Of a DNA stretch of 36,928 nucleotides, positions 1 to 34,442 are shown in pieces (positions within the stretch are counted from its first letter, which is position 1; every line of letters starts with the position of its first letter). A program made the translations under genes and the position numbers. The notes beneath the pieces are model-generated. The model saw only the letters and a list, made by a program, of their open reading frames with translations. It was not told the DNA's origin and searched no databases. Origin of the DNA: a virus (lineage: Duplodnaviria; Heunggongvirae; Uroviricota; Caudoviricetes); IMG/VR virus record IMGVR_UViG_2778261565_000018, positions 1 through 36,928 of that record; one strand, written 5' to 3'.

Positions 1-1284
1 TTACTTCTTCGCCTCTGCAACCACTTTGCTACCCACGCCGCGGTTATTGTATTCCCACATGCGGTTGTAGTTAGTGTCATTCAGATTGCGTTGTATTTCG
101 TCGCTATCGTCAACACTGCCGGTGTTACCTGCGAATGGACGATTGGAAATCACCGCATCGGCCCACGGTTTCGCCGTGTTAAAACCTTCGTTGATGGCGC
201 TATCACGGATCACCACCTGACCGTTGGTATTGGCATCAACATCCAGCGAGCGGCCCAGTTGCGCCACGCCATCACCGGAAGCATTGAAACGGCTGTTTAC
301 GGCGAGGAAACCGTAGTAAATGTTGGACAGCGTAGCCGGTGCAAACACATACGCTTCTTGCTGGGTACGGGAGTTCACCACGCGGAATTCGGTGTTATCG
401 AACACCACTGCGCCGCGACCAGAAACGATATCCACATCCCCTTCAATATAGCTGTTGGTCACCAGCGTACGCGGCTGACGATTCGTTTCCAGACGGTTCT
501 GCACACCGCTATTGGTGACAAAGAAGGTGTTCTGACGACCGAGAATGTTAACGTTGTTAATCTGTACCTGGTCACCATCAGTACGCAGTGCCACCGCCGG
601 ATGGTTACCCGCATCTACGCTATCACCCAGCGTGTTTTCGATGGTCAGGTTTTGCAGTTGCAGGCCATTGTTTTGTGACCAGAAGACCGCAGAGCAGAGA
701 ACACCGATACTGTCGCTGCGTTTGCTCTGGCAGCTATCGTACATATACCACGCTGGTTTACCTGGCATATATTTGCCGCGCGGGTTGACGTCGTGACGCC
801 AGTCGGCAGGGCTCATGCCCCCATCAAGGGAAAGCCCAATCTTCACATCAATCGGTTTTTCACCTGTACCGTACAGAGTAATTCCACCCGGAGCGGCAGG
901 GACATATACCGTTCCATGATACTCACCAGGCATCACGGCAATATACTGGCGCTTGTTGGTACGCTTGATAATTGCCGCATCTACCGCCGCCTGAATCGTG
1001 GTATGCGTTACACCTTGAGTACCCGCCGGGCCGACAACAAAGTCAGGTTGCGCAGGCAAGGTAATTGGGGAAGGATTCCACGCTGCCGCACCTGGTGTCA
1101 GGGATGCAAAATAGTGTTGAGCATCGAAATTCTGCGCTTCTTTTGCCGACAGAATCGGGCGTGAAGAGGTACCAGGCGCGGTTTGATCAGAAGGACGTTG
1201 ATCGGGCGGTGTTGAGCTACAGGCGGTCAGCGTCACGCCAAAAGCCAATGCCAGCGCCAGACGGGAAACTGAAAATGTGTTCAC
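1..1284 (-). CDS. ybhC: Host YbhC, pectinesterase-family acyl-CoA thioesterase lipoprotein (complete, 427 aa)
   Basis: Full ORF in track; N-terminal signal peptide with lipobox LTAC; recognised as the E. coli gene flanking attB-lambda. Confidence 0.8.
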   Translation of the reverse strand: MNTFSVSRLALALAFGVTLTACSSTPPDQRPSDQTAPGTSSRPILSAKEAQNFDAQHYFASLTPGAAAWNPSPITLPAQPDFVVGPAGTQGVTHTTIQAAVDAAIIKRTNKRQYIAVMPGEYHGTVYVPAAPGGITLYGTGEKPIDVKIGLSLDGGMSPADWRHDVNPRGKYMPGKPAWYMYDSCQSKRSDSIGVLCSAVFWSQNNGLQLQNLTIENTLGDSVDAGNHPAVALRTDGDQVQINNVNILGRQNTFFVTNSGVQNRLETNRQPRTLVTNSYIEGDVDIVSGRGAVVFDNTEFRVVNSRTQQEAYVFAPATLSNIYYGFLAVNSRFNASGDGVAQLGRSLDVDANTNGQVVIRDSAINEGFNTAKPWADAVISNRPFAGNTGSVDDSDEIQRNLNDTNYNRMWEYNNRGVGSKVVAEAKK

Positions 1285-1418: not shown

Positions 1419-2489
1419 TTATTTGATTTCAATTTTGTCCCACTCCCTGCCTCTGTCATCACGATACTGTGATGCCATGGTGTCCGACTTATGCCCGAGA
1501 AGATGTTGAGCAAACTTATCGCTTATCTGCTTCTCATAGAGTCTTGCAGACAAACTGCGCAACTCGTGAAAGGTAGGCGGATCCCCTTCGAAGGAAAGAC
1601 CTGATGCTTTTCGTGCGCGCATAAAATACCTTGATACTGTGCCGGATGAAAGCGGTTCGCGACGAGTAGATGCAATTATGGTTTCTCCGCCAAGAATCTC
1701 TTTGCATTTATCAAGTGTTTCCTTCATTGATATTCCGAGAGCATCAACATGCAATACTGTTGGGATGGCAATTTTTACGCCTGTTTTGCTTTGCTCGACA
1801 TAAAGATATCCATCTACGATATCAGACCACTTCATTTCGCATAAATCACCAACTCGTTGCCCGGTAACAACAGCCAGTTCCATTGCAAGTCTGAGCCAAC
1901 ATGGTGATGATTCTGCTGCTTGATAAATTTTCAGGTATTCGTCAGCCGTAAGTCTTGATCTCCTTACCTCTGATTTTGCTGCGCGAGTGGCAGCGACAGG
2001 GTTTGTTGTTATATGGCCTTCAGCTATTGCCTCTCGGAATGCATCGCTCAGTGTTGATCTGATTAACTTGGCTGACGCCGCCTTGCCCTCGTCTATGTAT
2101 CCATTGAGCATTGCCGCAATTTCTTTTGTGGTGATGTCTTCAAGTGGAGCATCAGGCAGACCCCTCCTTATTGCTTTAATTTTGCTCATGTAATTTATGA
2201 GTGTCTTCTGCTTGATTCCTCTGCTGGCCAGGATTTTTTCGTAGCGATCAAGCCATGAATGTAACGTAACGGAATTATCACTGTTGATTCTCGCTGTCAG
2301 AGGCTTGTGTTTGTGTCCTGAAAATAACTCAATGTTGGCCTGTATGGCTTCAGTGATTGCGATTCGCCTGTCTCTGCCTAATCCAAACTCTTTACCCGTC
2401 CTTGGGTCCCTGTAGCAGTAATATCCATTGTTTCTTATATAAAGGTTAGGGGGTAAATCCCGGCGCTCATGACTTCGCCTTCTTCCCAT
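1419..2489 (-). CDS. int: Integrase (tyrosine recombinase), lambda Int, 356 aa
   Basis: ORF track protein recognised as lambda Int; overlaps xis as in lambda. Confidence 0.97.
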   Translation of the reverse strand: MGRRRSHERRDLPPNLYIRNNGYYCYRDPRTGKEFGLGRDRRIAITEAIQANIELFSGHKHKPLTARINSDNSVTLHSWLDRYEKILASRGIKQKTLINYMSKIKAIRRGLPDAPLEDITTKEIAAMLNGYIDEGKAASAKLIRSTLSDAFREAIAEGHITTNPVAATRAAKSEVRRSRLTADEYLKIYQAAESSPCWLRLAMELAVVTGQRVGDLCEMKWSDIVDGYLYVEQSKTGVKIAIPTVLHVDALGISMKETLDKCKEILGGETIIASTRREPLSSGTVSRYFMRARKASGLSFEGDPPTFHELRSLSARLYEKQISDKFAQHLLGHKSDTMASQYRDDRGREWDKIEIK

Positions 2490-2685
2490 TTCTGATCCTC
2501 TTCAAAAGGCTACCTGTTACTGGTCGATTTAAGTCAACCTTTACCGCTGATTCGTGGAACAGATATTCTCTTCCATCCTTAACCGGAGGAGGGAATATCC
2601 TGCATTCGCGCACCCATCGACGAACTGTTTCAAGGCTTCTTGGGCGTCGCTGGCGAGCGTTCCACTCCTGAAGTGTCAAGTACAT
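2467..2685 (-). CDS. xis: Excisionase Xis, 72 aa
   Basis: 72-aa ORF MYLTLQEWNARQRRPRSLETVRRW matches lambda Xis; overlaps int start. Confidence 0.95.
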   Translation of the reverse strand: MYLTLQEWNARQRRPRSLETVRRWVRECRIFPPPVKDGREYLFHESAVKVDLNRPVTGSLLKRIRNGKKAKS

Positions 2686-2712
2686 CGCAAAGTCTCCGCA
2701 ATTACACGCAAG

Positions 2713-2732
2713 AAAAAACCGCCATCAGGCGG
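2713..2732 (-). terminator. Putative intrinsic terminator (CCGCC-tgat-GGCGG then T6 on minus strand)
   Basis: Hairpin plus T-run read on minus strand, overlapping stop of the small ORF upstream. Confidence 0.4.
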
Positions 2733-2892
2733 CTTGGTGTTCTTTCAGTTCTTCAATTCGAATATTGGTTATGTCTGCATGTGCTATCTGCGCCCATATC
2801 ATCCAGTGGTCGTAGCAGTCGTTGATGTTCTCCGCTTCGATAACTCTGTTGAATGGCTCTCCATTCCATTCTCCTGTGACTCGGAAGTGCAT
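2725..2892 (-). CDS. Small hypothetical protein (55 aa), lambda orf55-like
   Basis: Hand-translated minus-strand ORF MHFRVTGEWNGEPF...; below the ORF-track size cutoff; position between xis and ea8.5. Confidence 0.5.
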   Translation of the reverse strand: MHFRVTGEWNGEPFNRVIEAENINDCYDHWMIWAQIAHADITNIRIEELKEHQAA

Positions 2893-2980
2893 TTATCATC
2901 TCCATAAAACAAAACCCGCCGTAGCGAGTTCAGATAAAATAAATCCCCGCGAGTGCGAGGATTGTTATGTAATATTGGGT

Positions 2981-3262
2981 TTAATCATCTATATGTTTTG
3001 TACAGAGAGGGCAAGTATCGTTTCCACCGTACTCGTGATAATAATTTTGCACGGTATCAGTCATTTCTCGCACATTGCAGAATGGGGATTTGTCTTCATT
3101 AGACTTATAAACCTTCATGGAATATTTGTATGCCGACTTTATATCTATACCTTCATCTACATAAATACCTTCGTGATGTCTGCATGGAGACAAGACACCG
3201 GATCTGCACAACATTGATAACGCCCAATCTTTTTGCTCAGACTCTAACTCATTGATACTCAT
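2981..3262 (-). CDS. ea8.5: Ea8.5 b-region protein, 93 aa
   Basis: 93-aa cysteine-rich ORF at the lambda ea8.5 position and size. Confidence 0.8.
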   Translation of the reverse strand: MSINELESEQKDWALSMLCRSGVLSPCRHHEGIYVDEGIDIKSAYKYSMKVYKSNEDKSPFCNVREMTDTVQNYYHEYGGNDTCPLCTKHIDD

Positions 3263-3464
3263 TTATAAACTCCTTGCAATGTATGTCGTTTCAGCTAAAC
3301 GGTATCAGCAATGTTTATGTAAAGAAACAGTAAAATAATACTCAACCCGATGTTTGAGTACGGTCATCATCTGACACTACAGACTCTGGCATCGCTGTGA
3401 AGACGACGCGAAATTCAGCATTTTCACAAGCGTTATCTTTTACAAACCCGTATTCCTGCTCATA

Positions 3465-4016
3465 TCACTCTCCTTTGATGCGAATGCCTGTTGCAATGCT
3501 GTTTATGATGCTGTCAGTGCATGGGGTAGAAAGCTGGGCATCTCCAGCAATTCTCATGACCTCAACATCTGCATATCGAATACCGAGGTGTATCAGACCG
3601 GCTATACCTGACTTAAGCCGAGCATTTTCCATAAACAGATCCTTTGCCCGCTGTTTTTCTGCCTCAAGCTCAACGCGCAACTTCCCTACCGTTAACGCAA
3701 TCTCCTCGTTCTCCTGGTCGCGGCGTTTGATGTATTGCTGGTTTCTTTCCAGCTCATCCAGCAGCGCCAAGACGGTAGCGGGATTGGCTGCGGCGATGAA
3801 TTCAGCATTGGCCTGCTGTTCCATTTGGAAATCTTCATCGAAACCGCTTTCTGGATGCGCTCCTTCAATTCTGCAAATAGGAATATATCCAGCAACTTCA
3901 CGATGAATTAGCGCATCATCACCATCAAATCGGCTCTCTCCATATTCGAGCGACCACTCACCACACGTTGCTTTTTCTGCCTTGGCCCGCAGTGCCTGAG
4001 AGTTAATTTCGCTCAC
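3465..4016 (-). CDS. Ea22-like b-region protein, 183 aa
   Basis: N terminus MSEINSQALR and coiled-coil middle resemble lambda Ea22 from memory; correct position. Confidence 0.6.
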   Translation of the reverse strand: MSEINSQALRAKAEKATCGEWSLEYGESRFDGDDALIHREVAGYIPICRIEGAHPESGFDEDFQMEQQANAEFIAAANPATVLALLDELERNQQYIKRRDQENEEIALTVGKLRVELEAEKQRAKDLFMENARLKSGIAGLIHLGIRYADVEVMRIAGDAQLSTPCTDSIINSIATGIRIKGE

Positions 4017-4234
4017 TTCGAACCTCTCTGTTTACTGATAAGCTCCAGATCTTCCTGGCAACTTGCACAAGTCCGACAACCCTGAACGGCCAGGCGTCTT
4101 CGCTCATCTATGGGATCGCCACACTCACAACAATGAGTGGCAGATACAGCCTGGTGGTTCAGGCGGCGCATTTTTATTGCTGTGTTGCGCTGTAATTCTT
4201 CAATTTCTGATGCTGAATCAATGATGTCTGCCAT
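4013..4234 (-). CDS. TraR/DksA-family C4 zinc-finger protein (lambda Orf73-like)
   Basis: 73 aa with CxxC...CxxC motif (CCECGDPI...CRTCASC) typical of TraR/DksA-like proteins. Confidence 0.7.
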   Translation of the reverse strand: MADIIDSASEIEELQRNTAIKMRRLNHQAVSATHCCECGDPIDERRRLAVQGCRTCASCQEDLELISKQRGSK

Positions 4235-4332
4235 CTTCCATTAATCCCTGAATTGTTGGTTAATACGCTTGGGGGTAAATGCGAGCAATAAAAAAGGAGC
4301 CTGTAGCTCCCTGATAATTTTGCTTTTCATGT

Positions 4333-4548
4333 TCATCGTTCCTTAAAGACGCCGTTTAACATGCCGATTGCCAGGCTTAAATGAGTCGGTGTGAATCCCA
4401 TCAGCGTTACCGTTTCGCGGTGCTTCTTCAGTACGCTACGGCAAATGTCATCGACGTTTTTATCCGGAAACTGCTGTCTGGCTTTTTTGATTTCAGAATT
4501 AGCCTGACGGGCAATGCTGCGAAGGGCGTTTTCTTGCTGAGGTGTCAT
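4333..4548 (-). CDS. Hypothetical early protein (start ambiguous; alternative ATG at 4614)
   Basis: ORF track 4333-4614; in-frame Met at MTPQQENALR. Confidence 0.5.
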   Translation of the reverse strand: MTPQQENALRSIARQANSEIKKARQQFPDKNVDDICRSVLKKHRETVTLMGFTPTHLSLAIGMLNGVFKER

Positions 4549-9163: not shown

Positions 9164-9916
9164 TTATGCTGCAAGTCTCTTAATCCAAGTCTCTCTTTTG
9201 GAGAATGGTAGAACTTGGCTTGATTCATGGAAGAGTAAGGAGAGTTGTTGCATTTGATCACCAATTGCTTCGCTGTCTATAACAACAAATCTGTTGTTAT
9301 ACTCCTCACTTGAAGCTTTAAGATCAATTAGTTTCCCAAGCAATGAGTAAGCACTATTCCAGCTTCCTCCGTGTTTCACGCTTGATGTAAAAACGTATTT
9401 AGGTATGTCGGTTTTTATTGTTACAGGGACGGTAATTTGATGTCCACTCAAGCCATATACGTTTTCACGAAGAGAAAGTGCGTCTCTAAGCTCTGTGTGA
9501 TATAGATAATCAATAACCATACTTTCAAACTTTTCAGCTTGAACTGGCTGATACCAGTCTAACGACAAAGTTGATGCGAGTATACCAGCTCTAATTATGT
9601 TCGATGTAATCGCACCGACATCCTTTTCTGTTGCCCAAGCAATGATTTCTCCTCGAGCATTGAGTTCTGCGCCTTCTTTAAGCAGTAATTGTCGTATCTC
9701 ATCAAGTCGTTTTTTGGTAAGCGAGATCCCTCTTGCCTCCATATTCATTAAGGCATCGCATCTGTCACTAACTAAATACCTACCATTGACTTCACGGATA
9801 AAGGCACCGACATGCTCTCCATCATCACAGTAAGTGAATGGACTGATAATTCTCAAGGTCTTGCCTATTGGATGGCATTCGAAACCTAGTTGTGAGATCA
9901 CTGTTGAGCACATCAT
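9164..9916 (-). CDS. Hypothetical protein B (250 aa), distal gene of rex-slot cassette
   Basis: ORF track; ATGATG start overlaps upstream ORF stop (ATGA); no family recognised; AT-rich. Confidence 0.6.
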   Translation of the reverse strand: MMCSTVISQLGFECHPIGKTLRIISPFTYCDDGEHVGAFIREVNGRYLVSDRCDALMNMEARGISLTKKRLDEIRQLLLKEGAELNARGEIIAWATEKDVGAITSNIIRAGILASTLSLDWYQPVQAEKFESMVIDYLYHTELRDALSLRENVYGLSGHQITVPVTIKTDIPKYVFTSSVKHGGSWNSAYSLLGKLIDLKASSEEYNNRFVVIDSEAIGDQMQQLSLLFHESSQVLPFSKRETWIKRLAA

Positions 9917-10470
9917 ATTCCAAACCCCATTTGCCCCGACTCATCTTCAAGCGGTAAAGGTATTCTCCCAGAGTAAGTTATGTTCAGATGTTTACAGAAG
10001 TAATTCCAATACCCTACCAGGTCATCTGGGTTTATGTCATCTTCGATTGGAAACGCTATTCTATCACTATAGTATCCAGCTTCTTCATAGTATACATGGT
10101 AGTGAGCACCGTAAATGATATCTTGGTACTTCGGATGATCGACCTTGTAACTATTCGTGTGTTTGTCAAAGTGATAGGTATCTACCGCGAAAACCCTCTT
10201 GTTATGATAGAAAGCAATAATATTTATTTTAGGGTAAGAAATCGGGTCATCAGGTTCTGAATCCTGATCTGGTTTCCATTTCAGTTCAAACTTTAGCCCT
10301 TGTATAGGTATACAATCCTCATCCAAGGGGATGATATGAGCTTGTAGCCACATATCAGAGCGACTTGGTTTCTGTTTCCATTTAACGCCAGAAAAGTTAA
10401 CTATTTTTTTACAATAAAGTACTTTATCAACTTCTACTTGGCTTGGCTGATAATCATCTATTTTTGCCAA
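9913..10470 (-). CDS. Hypothetical protein A (up to 185 aa), proximal gene of rex-slot cassette
   Basis: ORF track; co-directional with cI, 39 nt downstream; only a TTG start at 10470 or an internal ATG near 10353; no family recognised. Confidence 0.5.
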   Translation of the reverse strand: MAKIDDYQPSQVEVDKVLYCKKIVNFSGVKWKQKPSRSDMWLQAHIIPLDEDCIPIQGLKFELKWKPDQDSEPDDPISYPKINIIAFYHNKRVFAVDTYHFDKHTNSYKVDHPKYQDIIYGAHYHVYYEEAGYYSDRIAFPIEDDINPDDLVGYWNYFCKHLNITYSGRIPLPLEDESGQMGFGI

Positions 10471-30943: not shown

Positions 30944-31277
30944 GTCTGAAGTTTTTAACTGGATCCCCCGCGAGGGGATGGAGACGACACGAAAGCCATC
31001 TGTTATTACGGTAAAGTTCGGTGACGGATATGAACAGCGACGGGCTGGTGGTCTGAATGCAGATCTGAAAACGTTTAAACCGGTATTTCGTGTCACGGAT
31101 GAATATTCCCGTGCCGCGCTGGACAGTTTTTTATCCCGTCATGCCGGGGTTCGTGCTTTTTTGTGGCGTCCGCCAAAACACAACAGGACTGTCCGGGTTG
31201 TCTGCAGGGAGTGGAGCATTTCGGATAATGCCATGTATACCGATTTTAACTGTACCTTTGAAGAGGTCACTCACTGA
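30936..31277 (+). CDS. M: Minor tail protein M (start ambiguous: GTG 30936 preferred, ATG 30975 alternative)
   Basis: FGDGYEQR and FLWRPP motifs as in lambda M; GGAGG 8 nt before GTG. Confidence 0.8.
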   Translation: MPESEVFNWIPREGMETTRKPSVITVKFGDGYEQRRAGGLNADLKTFKPVFRVTDEYSRAALDSFLSRHAGVRAFLWRPPKHNRTVRVVCREWSISDNAMYTDFNCTFEEVTH

Positions 31278-31975
31278 TGCAGGATATACAGCAGGAAACA
31301 CTCAATGAGTGCACTAAAACGGAGCAATCCGCGCTGGTCGTGCTCTGGGAAATTGATCTGACAGAGGTCGGCGGAGATCGTTATTTCTTCTGTAATGAGC
31401 AGAACGAAAAAGGTGAACCAGTCACCTGGCAGGGGCGGCAGTATCAGGCCTATCCCATTCAGGGAAGTGGATTTGAGATGAACGGCAAAGGAGCCAGTGC
31501 AAGGCCAACGCTGAAAGTCTCTAATCTGCACGGCATGGTCACCGGGATGGCGGAAGACCTGCAGAGTCTGGTCGGCGGAACGGTGGTCAGGCGTAAGGTT
31601 TACGCCCGTTTTCTGGATGTGGTGAACTTCGTCAACGGAAACAGCGAAGCCGATCCAGAGCAGGAGGTGATCAGCCGCTGGCGCATCGAGCAGTGCAGCG
31701 AACTGAGCGCGGTGAGTGCCTCTTTTGTACTGTCCACGCCGACTGAAACGGATGGCGCTGTTTTTCCGGGACGTATCATGCTGGCCAACACCTGCACCTG
31801 GACCTATCGCGGCGATGAGTGCGGTTATAGCGGTCCGGCGGTCGCGGATGAATATGACCAGCCGACGTCCGATATCACGAAGGATAAATGCAGCAAATGC
31901 CTGAGCGGCTGTAAGTTTCGCAATAACGTCGGCAACTTTGGCGGCTTCCTTTCCATTAACAAACTTTCGCAGTAA
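31277..31975 (+). CDS. L: Minor tail protein L, 232 aa
   Basis: Recognised as lambda L; C-terminal Cys cluster. Confidence 0.9.
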   Translation: MQDIQQETLNECTKTEQSALVVLWEIDLTEVGGDRYFFCNEQNEKGEPVTWQGRQYQAYPIQGSGFEMNGKGASARPTLKVSNLHGMVTGMAEDLQSLVGGTVVRRKVYARFLDVVNFVNGNSEADPEQEVISRWRIEQCSELSAVSASFVLSTPTETDGAVFPGRIMLANTCTWTYRGDECGYSGPAVADEYDQPTSDITKDKCSKCLSGCKFRNNVGNFGGFLSINKLSQ

Positions 31976-31984
31976 TGGATTATG

Positions 31985-32006
31985 CCCACCATCAGGTGGG
32001 TTTTTT
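31985..32006 (+). terminator. Intrinsic terminator after L
   Basis: CCCACC-atca-GGTGGG followed by T6. Confidence 0.6.
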
Positions 32007-32366
32007 GTTGTCATCACCAAGATATTTCTGCTTATATTCCTCTGAAAGAGGAATTGATCTTTCAACCATGCTAATAAGTTTATCTACTTGTTTTTTCTGT
32101 TTTTCTATGATTTCTAAAAGTTGAGGTATAAGTTTTTCATGCTCGCTTTTATCATATTTTCTGTTTATCGCATCTAGTTGTTCTTTAAACTGCTGAACGA
32201 TAGGACCATCCTCCGGCCCAAAATCACGACAAACACGAATCGCCAACTCAAGCAGAGTGACAATCTCAGCATTCATAGAACGATTATTTTGTTTTGATGA
32301 CGCTTCAATTATTTTTTTTAATTCAACAGGAAGCCTAATCCGAAGTTGAGGGTCTTCTCTACTCAT
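31992..32366 (-). CDS. Mnt-like ribbon-helix-helix repressor with C-terminal extension, 124 aa
   Basis: N terminus MSREDPQLRIRLPVELKKIIEASSKQNNRSMNAEIVTLL resembles P22 Mnt RHH; divergent from the arc/ant operon. Confidence 0.65.
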   Translation of the reverse strand: MSREDPQLRIRLPVELKKIIEASSKQNNRSMNAEIVTLLELAIRVCRDFGPEDGPIVQQFKEQLDAINRKYDKSEHEKLIPQLLEIIEKQKKQVDKLISMVERSIPLSEEYKQKYLGDDNKKPT

Positions 32367-32409
32367 ACCATTAGTCCAAACAGGAAAAATTCACAATAAG
32401 TAAATTATG

Positions 32410-32472
32410 CCCCACGGTGGGGTTGACTTCAATGACGCACGGTGTGACAATTTTGATTGCCCCACAGTGAGG
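32410..32472 (+). promoter_or_regulatory. Divergent promoter/operator region: palindrome CCCCACGGTGGGG (32410-32422), TTGACT -35 (32423-32428), second half-palindrome GCCCCACAGTGAGG (32459-32472)
   Basis: Perfect 13-bp palindrome next to a -35 hexamer; related copy 50 bp downstream near the arc-like gene RBS. Confidence 0.55.
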
Positions 32473-32489
32473 CTATTTAAGGAGTGGAG

Positions 32490-32657
32490 ATGGAAAAAGC
32501 AAAAGACATGTATCAACGCAAGGTTCGTTTCCCAGAGGATGTAAGGAAGGCGATTGAAAGAAATGGAGAAAAAGAGTGTCGACAGTTCAACACGGAACTT
32601 ATTTATCAATTGAGAAAAGTGTACGGACTGATTGGAGAGAAGAATGCTAGGACATAA
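32490..32657 (+). CDS. Arc-like ribbon-helix-helix repressor, 55 aa
   Basis: Hand-translated MEKAKDMYQRKVRFPEDVRKAIERNGEKECRQFNTELIYQLRKVYG resembles P22 Arc; AAGGAG RBS 5 nt before ATG. Confidence 0.65.
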   Translation: MEKAKDMYQRKVRFPEDVRKAIERNGEKECRQFNTELIYQLRKVYGLIGEKNART

Positions 32658-32726
32658 AAATAGCGAAGCCCGACAGTGCGCGAACACAAATCGGGCTTCT
32701 ATGTCAGTAACTTCCAAGGAACTAAC
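32655..32726 (-). ncRNA. Predicted Sar-like antisense RNA covering the ant RBS
   Basis: Minus-strand promoter TTGATA-17 bp-TATACT (plus-strand 32733-32761) with -10 overlapping the ant start; minus-strand terminator is the perfect 9-bp hairpin at 32665-32699 plus T-rich tail. Confidence 0.5.
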
Positions 32727-32729
32727 GAA

Positions 32730-33650
32730 ATGAGTATAGCAACAGCGGTATCTACTATCAACGTGCCATTCCACGGCGCAGAGCTTTATGTCGTCAATCA
32801 CAACGGCGAACCGTACACCCCAATGAAACCTATCGTTGAGGGAATGGGTATGGATTGGGCTTCACAGTTTACAAAGTTAAAACAAAGATTTGCTAAAGGT
32901 ATTGTGGAAATCGCAATACCTTCAGTTGGCGGTATGCAGACCATGATTTGCCTTGCTTTGCGTAAACTGAATGGTTGGCTCCAAACCATCAGTCCTAACA
33001 AAGTCCGCCCTGAAATCCGCGAGAAGGTAATCCAGTATCAGGAAGAGTGTGACGATGTGCTCTACGAGTACTGGACTAAAGGCCATGTGATTAACCCGCG
33101 CAAAGCTAAAAAGGCGTTGCCGGGTAAAATCACCACTGAACAGCAGGAAGCCATTAAACAACTCGTCATGAGTCGCGGTCAGTCTCTGCCAAAAGAAAAA
33201 CAGGCTAAGGCGATGATCACCATGTGGTCGTCACTGAAATCCCATTTTGGATGTTCGTACAAAGAAATTAGTGAGGAGCAGTTTACCGAAGCACTGTCAC
33301 TTGCTGCTCGCGTTCCGCTTGAAGGTGAGTTCATTGGCAAACAAGAGAAGAAAACCAACGAGCTTTCCGCAAAAGAAGCAAACAGCCTTGTATGGCTGTG
33401 GGATTATGCTAACCGCTCACAGGCATTATTCCGCGAATTGTATCCAGCGCTAAAGCAAATTCAATCGAACTATTCCGGCAGATGTTACGACTACGGCCAT
33501 GAGTTCTCGTATGTTATTGGAATGGCGAGAGACGTTTTAATCAATCACACACGAGATGTTGATATTAATGAGCCAGATGGACCAACGAATCTTTCCGCAT
33601 GGGTAAGGCTTAAGAGCAAAGAGTTGCCGCCTTCACTGCATCACTACTAA
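32730..33650 (+). CDS. ant: Antirepressor Ant (P22 Ant-like N-terminal domain), 306 aa
   Basis: N-terminal region (LYVVNHNGEPYTPMKPIVEGMGMDW) resembles P22-type antirepressor; AAGGA RBS; downstream of arc-like gene. Confidence 0.7.
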   Translation: MSIATAVSTINVPFHGAELYVVNHNGEPYTPMKPIVEGMGMDWASQFTKLKQRFAKGIVEIAIPSVGGMQTMICLALRKLNGWLQTISPNKVRPEIREKVIQYQEECDDVLYEYWTKGHVINPRKAKKALPGKITTEQQEAIKQLVMSRGQSLPKEKQAKAMITMWSSLKSHFGCSYKEISEEQFTEALSLAARVPLEGEFIGKQEKKTNELSAKEANSLVWLWDYANRSQALFRELYPALKQIQSNYSGRCYDYGHEFSYVIGMARDVLINHTRDVDINEPDGPTNLSAWVRLKSKELPPSLHHY

Positions 33651-33668
33651 CAGATTACCAACGAAATG

Positions 33669-33692
33669 ACCCAGCCTCGGCTGGGTTTTTTA
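33669..33692 (+). terminator. Intrinsic terminator after ant
   Basis: ACCCAGC-ctcg-GCTGGGT followed by T5. Confidence 0.6.
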
Positions 33693-33704
33693 TCAGGAGT
33701 TCTC

Positions 33705-34442
33705 ATGCTCTATAGCAATATATTGGCACACGCCCGGCGGTGTGCGCCTGCGGAGTCGTGCGGCTTCGTGGTGAGAACGCCGGAGGGGGAGCGGTATATC
33801 CCTTGTGTGAATATCTCTGCAGAGCCGGAGGCGTATTTTCGTATTGCACCGGAAGACTGGCTGCGGGCAGAGATGCAGGGGGAGATTGTGGCGCTGGTCC
33901 ACAGCCACCCCGGTGGTCTGCCCTGGCTGAGTGAGGCTGACAGGCGGCTGCAGGTGCAGAGCGATTTGCCTTGGTGGCTGGTCTGCCGGGGTGAGATTCA
34001 TAAATTCCGCTGTGTGCCGCATCTTACCGGGCGGCGCTTTGAGCACGGGGTGACGGACTGTTACACGCTGTTCCGGGATGCTTATCATCTGGCGGGGATT
34101 GAGATGCCGGATTTTCATCGCGGGGATGACTGGTGGCGTCACGGTCAGAATCTCTATCTGGATAATCTGGAGGCCACAGGGCTGTATCAGGTGCCGTTGT
34201 CAGCGGCGCAGCCGGGCGATGTGCTGCTGTGCTGTTTTGGTTCATCGGTGCCGAATCATGCCGCCATTTACTGTGGTGATGGCGAGCTGCTGCACCATAT
34301 TCCTGAACAACTGAGCAAACGAGAGAGGTATACCGACAAATGGCAGCGACGCACACACTCCCTCTGGCGTCACCGGGCATGGCACGCATCTGCCTTTACG
34401 GGGATTTGCAACGATTTGGCCGCCGCATCGACCTTCGTGTGA
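33705..34442 (+). CDS. K: Tail assembly protein K (MPN/JAB plus NlpC/P60-like)
   Basis: Recognised lambda K motifs (HARRCAP..ESCGF, HSHPGG, DCYTLFRDAY); start after AGGAG; the track start at 33666 lies inside the terminator. Confidence 0.85.
   Translation: MLYSNILAHARRCAPAESCGFVVRTPEGERYIPCVNISAEPEAYFRIAPEDWLRAEMQGEIVALVHSHPGGLPWLSEADRRLQVQSDLPWWLVCRGEIHKFRCVPHLTGRRFEHGVTDCYTLFRDAYHLAGIEMPDFHRGDDWWRHGQNLYLDNLEATGLYQVPLSAAQPGDVLLCCFGSSVPNHAAIYCGDGELLHHIPEQLSKRERYTDKWQRRTHSLWRHRAWHASAFTGICNDLAAASTFV

Follow-up and report, generated by a model that had tools for sequence, protein, structure and literature searches.

A probable P22 immI-type antirepressor cassette between tail genes L and K of a lambda-like prophage

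The immI region of phage P22 (NC_002371, 14519–16035) contains, in order, the leftward gene mnt, the Pmnt/Pant promoters with the operators Oarc and Omnt, arc, the leftward sar RNA with its terminator, ant with the promoter Psar inside it, and the terminator t_ant. The targets of P22 Ant include the repressors of phages P22, L, lambda and 21, and cross-induction of co-resident prophages has already been proposed for it (PMC3121763). The late-operon placement of the P22 region was described by Villafane, Casjens and co-workers in 2008 as an "ant moron" (PMC2629481). Such inserts of the morphogenetic operon vary, are under regulation of their own and usually contain an ant homologue, and their regulators turn over fast (ten types in sixteen genomes; PMC2629481). 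We examined whether the same can be said of an insert between tail genes L and K of a lambda-like prophage, using the whole 36,928-nt stretch of IMG/VR record IMGVR_UViG_2778261565_000018 as the window. Very probably this slot carries an intact P22 immI-type antirepressor cassette, or ant moron. All of the elements in the preliminary description of this DNA (two RHH genes, a divergent control region, ant and the terminators) were found where it had placed them; a sar-like antisense RNA, absent from that description, was added.

In an alignment to lambda, the stop of L and the ATG of K are 5 nt apart. When the boundaries of the insert were checked against this junction, the 5-nt spacer was found to be replaced by a 1.72-kb A+T-rich insert (31976 to ~33700). 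On the left flank, outside the insert, lies tail gene L (31277–31975, + strand; Pfam Phage_tail_L, 2.1e-99), and the alignment to lambda L holds through its 3' end to the TAA stop at 31975. On the right flank lies tail gene K (33705–34442, + strand; 245 aa; Pfam Prok-JAB and NlpC/P60); translation and alignment showed its first five codons to be unlike those of lambda K, and similarity to lambda picks up a few codons in, at ~33720. The K start was corrected to the ATG at 33705; the open reading frame start at 33666 overlaps the terminator. The A+T-richness noted previously was borne out: G+C is 43.0% in the insert and 38% in its regulator half, and the tail genes on either side have 52% and 59%. 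The three open reading frames of the cassette are intact. This is an insert and not a core component of the tail cluster, as the L–K junction is uninterrupted in at least 4319 of the 5426 complete E. coli genomes, a count which is a lower bound.

The Mnt-like repressor (31992–32366, − strand; 124 aa) has an N-terminal RHH domain and a long helical C-terminal part. The minus-strand Mnt-like RHH gene of the preliminary description was confirmed by a Pfam Arc match (3e-7; 30.6 bits, gathering cut-off 20.4), by 33% identity to P22 Mnt over residues 1–43 (pairwise E 2e-10), and by a top PDB match to Mnt itself (1MNT). The AF2 model has a pLDDT of ~90 at residues 11–40, with helices at 14–26, 31–49, 55–70 and 73–115; the last two, modelled with moderate confidence, make up a C-terminal part having no sequence similarity to the C-terminus of P22 Mnt. 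Full-length homologues with 80–99% identity are present in E. coli, Salmonella and Citrobacter, and the scan of species-representative genomes with this protein returned relatives of the N-terminal RHH domain only (residues 1–40). The C-terminal residues KKPT are conserved, and KKPT with the stop is encoded by the opposite strand of the terminator that follows L, in its stem and A-run.

The putative small Arc-like repressor (32490–32657, + strand) is 55 aa long, or 57 aa if translated from the alternative start at 32484. The open reading frame claimed for it and a weak similarity to P22 Arc (33% identity over 40 aa, pairwise E 2e-5) both stood; its assignment to the RHH family by Pfam was borderline, the Arc match of 19.1–19.2 bits falling just below the 20.4 cut-off. 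Its relatives form a conserved Enterobacteriaceae family of 55-aa proteins, many of them named Arc family by NCBI and some passing the Pfam cut-off. The AF2 monomer (pLDDT 67) has a non-helical segment at residues 10–15 and helices at 16–25 and 27–44, and this topology, in a model of moderate confidence, would fit an RHH fold. Foldseek gave no match of this short, moderate-confidence model to the PDB, and a sequence search of PDB chains returned designed proteins only, which was not considered meaningful. NCBIfam had no specific family for the Mnt-like protein, the Arc-like protein or Ant. Two other readings were tried and set aside: a toxin-antitoxin reading of the RHH proteins, where a weak FitA-like match stayed under cut-off and no toxin-like partner was present; and a defence-system reading, rejected because neither the Mnt-like protein nor Ant matched any PADLOC model.

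The third gene encodes the antirepressor Ant (32730–33650, + strand; 306 aa, or 324 aa from the alternative start at 32676). Both P22 antirepressor domains were found by the Pfam search, P22_AR_N (PF10547) at 1e-44 and P22_AR_C (PF10548) at 6.5e-30, in full agreement with the 306-aa antirepressor claimed. No relative with a solved structure was found for Ant. Identity to P22 Ant is 57% over the full length and is unevenly spread, being 47% for residues 1–125, 22% for residues 126–190 and 89% for residues 191–306. Given the low identity of the N-terminal and middle parts, the repressors targeted by this Ant may differ from those targeted by P22 Ant. By analogy with P22 Ant, a predicted action on the repressors of other prophages is plausible.

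Promoter-like sites on both strands and three operator-like sites were found within the 124-nt spacer between the mnt-like and arc-like genes, as had been proposed for a divergent promoter/operator region. The leftward site, which would serve the mnt-like gene (32404–32432, − strand; TTGAAG-17-CATAAT), matched the consensus at 9 of 12 positions. The rightward site (32423–32451, + strand; TTGACT-17-GACAAT with an extended TG), also identified by consensus scan, would serve arc-ant as the equivalent of P22 Pant; it aligns with the Pant region of P22 and is invariant in a 75%-identical relative. The three operator-like sites share CAC-N-GTG, a motif that occurs 10 times in the 36.9 kb; 3 of these copies fall in this spacer with a period of exactly 25 bp, against an expectation of 0.03, so that the cluster is more than chance. 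O1 (32410–32422, centre 32416), a perfect palindrome CCCCAC-G-GTGGGG in the spacer of the leftward promoter, is kept as CCTCAC-C-GTGTGC in the 75%-identical relative, and the sequence to its left, toward the mnt-like gene, diverges. O2 (32433–32449, centre 32441; TGACGCAC-G-GTGTGACA) lies in the spacer of the Pant-like promoter at the position of P22 Oarc; the outer positions of its half-sites are unlike those of O1 and O3, and we infer that this putative operator belongs to the Arc-like protein. O3 (32460–32472, centre 32466; CCCCAC-A-GTGAGG) covers roughly positions +2 to +14 relative to the rightward promoter. In the alignment to P22 it stands in register, column by column, with the Mnt operator GTCCACGGTGGAC, and it is a perfect palindrome in one relative (L114). 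All three sites and the adjoining promoter are kept in the 75%-identical relative.

The predicted promoters stand back to back, their −35 hexamers overlapping; those of P22 are fully superimposed. Because of this different geometry, taken from the consensus scan, the Mnt/Arc logic may differ from that of P22, for example with Mnt acting through O1 to repress the promoter of its own gene. In both repressors, the beta-strand residues that contact DNA are also unlike those of P22. No LexA box (CTGT-N8-ACAG, at most 1 mismatch) was present between 31976 and 33700, and SOS control of the cassette was thereby ruled out.

The terminators said to bracket the module after L and after ant were both found as + strand hairpins followed by T-runs. 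The terminator after L (31984–32007; stem 31984–32001) forms the left frame of the cassette. It is unrelated to the P22 mnt terminator; the junction TAA-TGGATTATGCCCACCRTCAGGTGGGTTTTTT is present in 6 of 6 L/K cassettes compared and absent from lambda. The terminator after ant (33668–33693; hairpin 33668–33687) forms the right frame, and AGGAG and the start of K come next. Its sequence is almost that of the terminator annotated for P22 ant, t_ant, and is identical in all L/K cassettes compared.

Between arc and ant, a sar-like antisense RNA of ~71 nt (32656–32726, − strand) is predicted, with ends taken from its promoter and U-run. It would fold into a 5' hairpin with an anti-Shine-Dalgarno loop, UCCUUGG, complementary to the Shine-Dalgarno sequence of ant, followed by a 3' terminator hairpin and U-run. 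The fold (−28.1 kcal/mol, z −4.9) takes the two-hairpin form of P22 sar, which aligns to this region at 74%. Both hairpins folded alike in 8 of 8 diverged variants, with compensatory changes in five pairs of the terminator hairpin. The Psar-like promoter (32733–32761, − strand; TTGATA-17-TATACT with an extended TG) lies inside the first ant codons, at the position annotated for P22 Psar; it is the best promoter match of the region (10 of 12) and its −10 hexamer is conserved in relatives. An Rfam scan of 31500–34200 (E ≤ 1) gave no match, sar included; therefore, the prediction of this RNA rests on the comparison with P22 and relatives.

With the antisense RNA in place, no named part of P22 immI lacks an equivalent here, order and orientation agree, and the P22 immI-like module of the preliminary description can be considered a full homologue of the P22 region. 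The three open reading frames and the small RNA are thus a P22-type immunity I cassette, and are neither tail genes nor a new circuit. The cassette is probably functional.

An antirepressor insert between L and K is of an already known, annotated kind in many E. coli prophages. The ant–K junction was present in 461 of the 5426 complete E. coli genomes (about 8%), including that of Stx phages 2851, 1717 and YYZ-2008, which have existing annotations for it. Among 80 viral contigs the same Ant occupied the P22-like slot in 58 and the L/K slot in 14, a comparison in which the K reference was translated one base out of frame, so that tblastn matches to it denote DNA homology to the K region and not protein similarity. 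The regulator pair of this cassette is rare: it occurred in 2 of the 5426 complete E. coli genomes and in none of the isolated phages of the collection, the closest being TL-2011b at 75%. Two other E. coli genomes have the cassette itself at 98% identity, and four viral contigs also carry it. The L/K cassettes of lambdoid prophages and long-tailed Stx phages (2851, 1717, YYZ-2008, Stx2a_WGPS, O157 prophages) have the same junctions, terminators and sar region, and an Ant of ~89–92% DNA identity to this one, but a different regulator pair, i.e., a leftward 106-aa and a rightward 57-aa Arc-family protein; they are annotated as L, Arc family, Arc family/Arc-like repressor, Ant and C40 peptidase. 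The interior therefore varies among L/K cassettes whereas junctions and terminators are fixed. A sister L/K cassette in strain EC12 has a LexA-like S24 repressor instead of Mnt. The ClpP-like, Arc and YlcI regulator sets seen at L/K occur as well in the slot between genes 16 and 9, and in a third slot, within a Salmonella baseplate cluster, the same Mnt/Arc-type regulators drive a Bro-N protein. The L/K cassette itself is neither described nor tested in any paper that we found; what was found comprises genome annotations, the ant moron and the Gifsy work.

From P22, the following course can be proposed. In a lysogen, the Mnt-like repressor made from the leftward promoter would bind the CCAC-N-GTGG operators over the rightward promoter and keep arc-ant silent. 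Upon entry into a Mnt-free cell, the rightward promoter would fire and give a short burst of the Arc-like protein and Ant, whereupon the Arc-like protein would shut this promoter. The sar-like RNA would pair with the ribosome-binding site of ant and block translation from leftover transcripts and from late transcripts reading through. Ant would bind cI/C2-type repressors non-covalently and, because it would inactivate them in trans, could tune the balance of lysis and lysogeny at infection and derepress resident lambdoid prophages. The flanking terminators would isolate the cassette from the tail genes, and Q-modified late transcription would read through both of them to K, I and J. For SOS induction of the prophage itself Ant is dispensable: the prophage encodes a cI-type repressor of its own (233 aa), in which an S24 self-cleavage domain is present, as well as a Q antiterminator.

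Several other accounts of the locus were weighed. In a broader one, which we think unlikely, Mnt/Arc-type control of an antirepressor-like gene, recurring in three tail architectures that are unrelated to each other (16/9, L/K and the Salmonella baseplate cluster), would be more than a tolerated insertion and reflect a selected link to late transcription: read-through might, for example, reset the Mnt/Arc/sar switch or titrate sar, affecting progeny or co-resident prophages or tuning the dosage of distal tail genes, and swappable sensors (RHH, LexA-like, ClpP-associated) would time the release of Ant.

The preliminary description had proposed that tail-gene transcription could be coupled to derepression of resident prophages. 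Under that account, Q-antiterminated transcription from L enters arc-ant, Ant is made with the tail proteins, and neighbouring prophages are induced in the late phase. The account has some appeal, as ant has the same orientation as L and K and, from lambda biology, a late polymerase modified by the Q present here should ignore the terminator after L; furthermore, P22 Ant hits heterologous repressors and its cross-induction has been proposed (PMC3121763). It was nevertheless unsupported by what was found. The conserved anti-Shine-Dalgarno antisense RNA over the ant ribosome-binding site would silence read-through mRNA, and conserved terminators bracket the cassette; P22, with the same layout, needs Ant neither for induction nor for lytic growth (PMC3121763). 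Moreover, a cell expressing late genes is already committed to lysis, so that inducing a neighbour at this time would bring little obvious gain. We regard this coupling as quite improbable. With a conserved antisense RNA, and with terminators conserved in all L/K cassettes compared, the design points to insulation of ant from late read-through transcripts and not to coupling.

Alternatively, the insert could matter in cis, its terminators and convergent transcription setting how much late transcription reaches K, I and J, with Ant incidental. Terminators and junctions are conserved in every L/K cassette compared even though the regulators are swapped, and the P22 ant moron has been suggested to have a similar, possibly accidental, effect on tailspike level (PMC2629481). 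Most lambda-like prophages, however, do without the insert (the junction being uninterrupted in at least 4319 of 5426 genomes), and the 86–98% identity of Ant across both the P22-like and L/K slots argues for selection on the protein. A Q-modified polymerase is highly resistant to terminators, which also counts against a role in cis, and we consider this account very unlikely. Equally slight in probability is the view that recombination with a P22-like phage left an inert cassette behind, its function lost, for although degraded ant morons are known in some P22-like phages (PMC2629481) and this regulator pair is as rare as 2 in 5426 E. coli genomes, the three open reading frames are full length with full-length homologues, and no part is broken among the predicted promoters, the operators and the two hairpins of the RNA, whose structure has been maintained by compensatory change.

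With the locus read as an antirepressor cassette of the P22 type, its annotation is settled as three open reading frames and one unannotated small RNA. Fixed junctions combined with swappable regulator sets make the L/K slot a clean natural case of modular exchange in a morphogenetic operon. Should the Ant of an L/K cassette inactivate Stx prophage repressors in the same cell, the induction of toxin phages would be affected; no paper was found testing such an Ant on Stx prophage repressors.

Compared to other described antirepressors, the cassette shares a general mode with those under LexA control (Gifsy GfoA/GftA, Fels-1 FsoA, N15 AntC and 186 Tum), which bind and inactivate repressors with possible prophage cross-talk (PMC3121763); the proteins are unrelated, and control there is by the SOS regulon whereas here it would be by RHH repressors and an antisense RNA. 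The closest system is P22 immI itself, from which the present cassette differs in detail. P22 sieA and orf59a are without counterparts here; the Mnt-like protein has 124 aa in place of the 83 aa of P22 Mnt, with C-terminal parts unrelated in sequence; both repressors are ~33% identical to their P22 counterparts, within the RHH domain only; and three related operator-like sites at a 25-bp period stand where P22 has one Oarc and one Omnt. The two regions are alike in gene order and orientation, in having operators between divergent promoters, in an antisense promoter inside ant with an antisense terminator in the arc-ant spacer, in homologous ant terminators, and in their place within the late operon, directly before a tail gene. 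The slot is between genes 16 and 9 in P22, and between L and K of a lambda-type long-tailed phage here; thus, whereas the ant moron description covers P22-like short-tailed phages only, the L/K position is a second slot with fixed junctions of its own.

The tail-gene run of the window is interrupted between L (Phage_tail_L by Pfam, 31277..31975, plus strand) and K (JAB+NlpC/P60, ATG at 33705, plus strand; Pfam and alignment to lambda). The ORF list returned three genes in the insert, at the coordinates of the preliminary description: a 124-aa Mnt-like ORF on the minus strand (31992..32366), and on the plus strand a 55-aa Arc-like ORF (ATG 32490, end 32657) and the 306-aa Ant (ATG 32730, end 33650). 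The segment had been described as A+T-rich, and its G+C is indeed 43.0% (38% in the regulator half), compared with 52% and 59% for the adjoining tail genes. When both ends of the insert were aligned with lambda, where only ATCCC separates the L stop from the K ATG, foreign sequence followed directly upon the L stop at 31975 of the window, and lambda K similarity returned a few codons inside K. The true start of K is the ATG at 33705 (MLYSNILAHARR... in the window vs MTQTESAILAHARR... in lambda); the ORF start at 33666, which overlaps a terminator, was rejected.

Domain searches supported two of the three assignments outright. The 124-aa protein matched Arc/RHH at 30.6 bits (Pfam cut-off, 20.4); its residues 1-43 are 33% identical to P22 Mnt, its top match among solved structures was Mnt (1MNT), and in its AF2 model an RHH core predicted with confidence precedes a series of long helices. 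The 55-aa protein fell slightly below the Arc cut-off (19.1 vs 20.4 bits); it shares 33% identity with P22 Arc across 40 residues, belongs to a conserved 55-aa Enterobacteriaceae family mostly named Arc family by NCBI, and its AF2 monomer, at moderate confidence, is compatible with an RHH fold. Ant matched P22_AR_N (1e-44) and P22_AR_C (6.5e-30) in Pfam and is 57% identical overall to P22 Ant; identity reaches 89% over the C-terminal 116 residues, against 47% for the N-terminal domain and 22% for the middle part.

A consensus scan placed a rightward promoter-like site at 32423-32451 (plus) and a leftward one at 32432-32404 (minus), and terminators after L (31984-32001, plus) and after ant (33668-33687, plus), bearing out the divergent promoters and bracketing terminators noted earlier. 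Motif counting found ten copies of CAC-N-GTG in the entire window, three of which lie at an exact 25-bp period in 124 nt (expected 0.03), forming operator-like sites centred at 32416 (O1), 32441 (O2) and 32466 (O3). O3 aligns with the P22 Mnt operator, and O2 is within the promoter spacer, the place of the P22 Arc operator. O1 lies inside the spacer of the leftward promoter, a position that suggests autoregulation of the Mnt-like protein through this site. In a relative at 75% overall identity, the promoter and all three sites were conserved and the sequence leftward of O1 had diverged.

The best promoter match of the region was a Psar-like site on the minus strand (32761..32733), inside the first ant codons. 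From this promoter and a hairpin followed by a U-run, which stops at the arc-like stop codon, a sar-like antisense RNA of about 71 nt is predicted (minus strand, start near 32726, end near 32656); it was absent from the preliminary description and is also unannotated. It folds into two hairpins (-28.1 kcal/mol, z = -4.9), the same shape as P22 sar, and at the DNA level it aligns with the sar region of P22 at 74% identity. The hairpin-1 loop, UCCUUGG, is complementary to the ant Shine-Dalgarno sequence. Together, 80 viral contigs and a further five annotated loci supplied 34 distinct ant-upstream sequences, among which the two-hairpin fold was kept in eight diverged types despite differing stem sequences, and RNAalifold detected compensatory changes in five terminator-stem pairs. 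Rfam did not detect the sar-like element. At 32730-32738 of the window, the start codon of ant adjoins the Psar -10 hexamer (ATGAGTATA), and all other variants aligned have one additional codon there (ATGAAAAGTATA and similar); the antisense RNA of the window type is therefore predicted to start 4 nt upstream of the ATG rather than at it.

The right terminator is almost identical to the P22 ant terminator; the left one shows no relationship to that of P22 mnt. The left terminator (31984-32007; the same in comparison loci L003-L005) is also protein-coding: KKPT plus a stop are specified by its A-run and stem, and thus unrelated leftward regulators adjoining it (window, O157 and EC12 LexA-like types) have a common ...KKPT C-terminus, which marks a recombination joint. 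The junctions at either end, terminators included, were identical across the L/K cassettes compared, and differing regulators stood upstream of the same Ant; judged from these sequences, the pattern fits one ancestral L/K insertion whose interior was swapped afterwards.

In the E. coli EC12 locus (L005, 1693-3778), with the same junctions and Ant, a 269-aa LexA-like repressor (HTH plus an S24 self-cleavage domain) takes the place of Mnt, and Ant release there may be SOS-triggered. A similar HTH+S24 regulator lies upstream of a P22AR_C protein in another locus, L115. E. coli MS 196-1 (L006, 1733-4013) and phage PhiR12_1 (L007, 1733-3745) carry a leftward ClpP-like gene (Pfam CLP_protease, 2e-11) with two and one Arc-family genes, respectively, and a 46-aa YlcI/Arc protein upstream of Ant; among the viral contigs this ClpP-like set was found in the P22-type slot between gene 16 and 9 homologues too. 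In four Salmonella enterica loci (L116-L119, about 2250-4375 each), a Mnt-like protein at 83% identity, with the same 55-aa Arc-like partner, controls a 187-aa Bro-N protein and an ORF of 248 aa. This cassette lies within a baseplate/tail cluster (Dit_like, Pam3_gp18 ... Sheath_initiator, Baseplate_J), so that immI-type cassettes are found in a third kind of tail architecture.

Of the 5426 complete E. coli genomes, at least 4319 had an uninterrupted lambda-type L-K junction, 461 had the ant-terminator-K junction, and only 2 had the Mnt-like/Arc-like pair of the window; none of the isolated phages in the phage collection carried this pair. Existing annotations of Stx phages 2851, 1717 and YYZ-2008, WGPS phages and O157 prophages already show this layout, with a different Arc-family pair. 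For the 80 viral contigs with the most similar Ant (76-98% identity), the cassette occupied the 16/9 slot in 58 and the L/K slot in 14, and 8 were cut too short to tell; identical regulator sets were found in both slots.

The window itself is a mosaic lambda-like prophage that occupies the lambda attachment site, with a ybhC-like host gene (1..1284), a lambda-type integrase (1419..2489), an early region that matches lambda at 97% identity across 61% of its length, and HK97-type head genes (19240..24677; terminase, portal, S78 protease, capsid). Strain Res13 (L003) has a near-identical cassette, but in a prophage with lambda-type head genes. Besides a Q antiterminator, the prophage encodes a cI-type repressor of its own that carries an S24 self-cleavage domain, so its SOS induction does not require Ant; no LexA box was found within the cassette. 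Two minus-strand genes directly downstream of this repressor, in the lambda rexA/rexB position (9164..9916 and 9913..10470), matched Pfam DUF1828 and DUF6978 and the PADLOC candidate PDC-M24 (B protein, 6e-10; A protein, 5e-4), and may be a prophage-expressed exclusion or defence pair.

The proposed working starts from the observed gene content, motifs, RNA structure and junctions, and takes binding partners, timing and Ant targets by analogy. By homology with P22, the Mnt-like protein would hold arc-ant silent in lysogens; where Mnt is missing, a burst of Arc and Ant would come from the rightward promoter before Arc shut it, and Ant would inactivate cI/C2-type repressors in trans. The sar-like RNA would pair with the ant ribosome-binding site and block Ant translation, as described for sar (PMC7968456). 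The repressors of P22, L, lambda and 21 are all targets of P22 Ant, and cross-induction of neighbouring prophages by Ant has already been proposed (PMC3121763); deletion of P22 immI lowers lysogeny frequency (PMC11016777). The preliminary description had further proposed that the L/K position could couple tail-gene transcription to Ant action on resident prophages. We consider such coupling to Ant production unsupported and improbable, since the conserved antisense RNA and conserved flanking terminators point instead to an Ant insulated from late read-through. The 'ant moron' of P22-like phages has been described, with the suggestion that it may incidentally affect the expression of tail genes downstream (PMC2629481). 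On a less likely reading, the repeated occurrence of such cassettes in tail operons of unrelated architecture, with exchangeable sensors, may mean that a connection to late transcription is under selection.

Systems of this type are well known, and hundreds of database records carry annotations of the L/K location; the literature searches found no paper analysing or testing that location. In the annotated P22 genome, immI runs mnt (minus), superimposed Pmnt/Pant with Arc and Mnt operators, arc, sar (minus), ant and the ant terminator, with the sar terminator inside the arc-ant spacer and Psar within the first ant codons; late gene 16 lies upstream and the tailspike gene 9 follows the ant terminator. 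Every one of these parts has its counterpart in the window, so the identification as an immI-like module holds. The window differs from P22 in that its promoters are back to back by consensus scan rather than superimposed, and both repressors differ from their P22 counterparts in the DNA-reading residues; these departures may alter mechanistic details. A late-operon location is native to the cassette in P22 and is no new feature; specific to the window are the rare regulator pair and the unannotated sar-like RNA.
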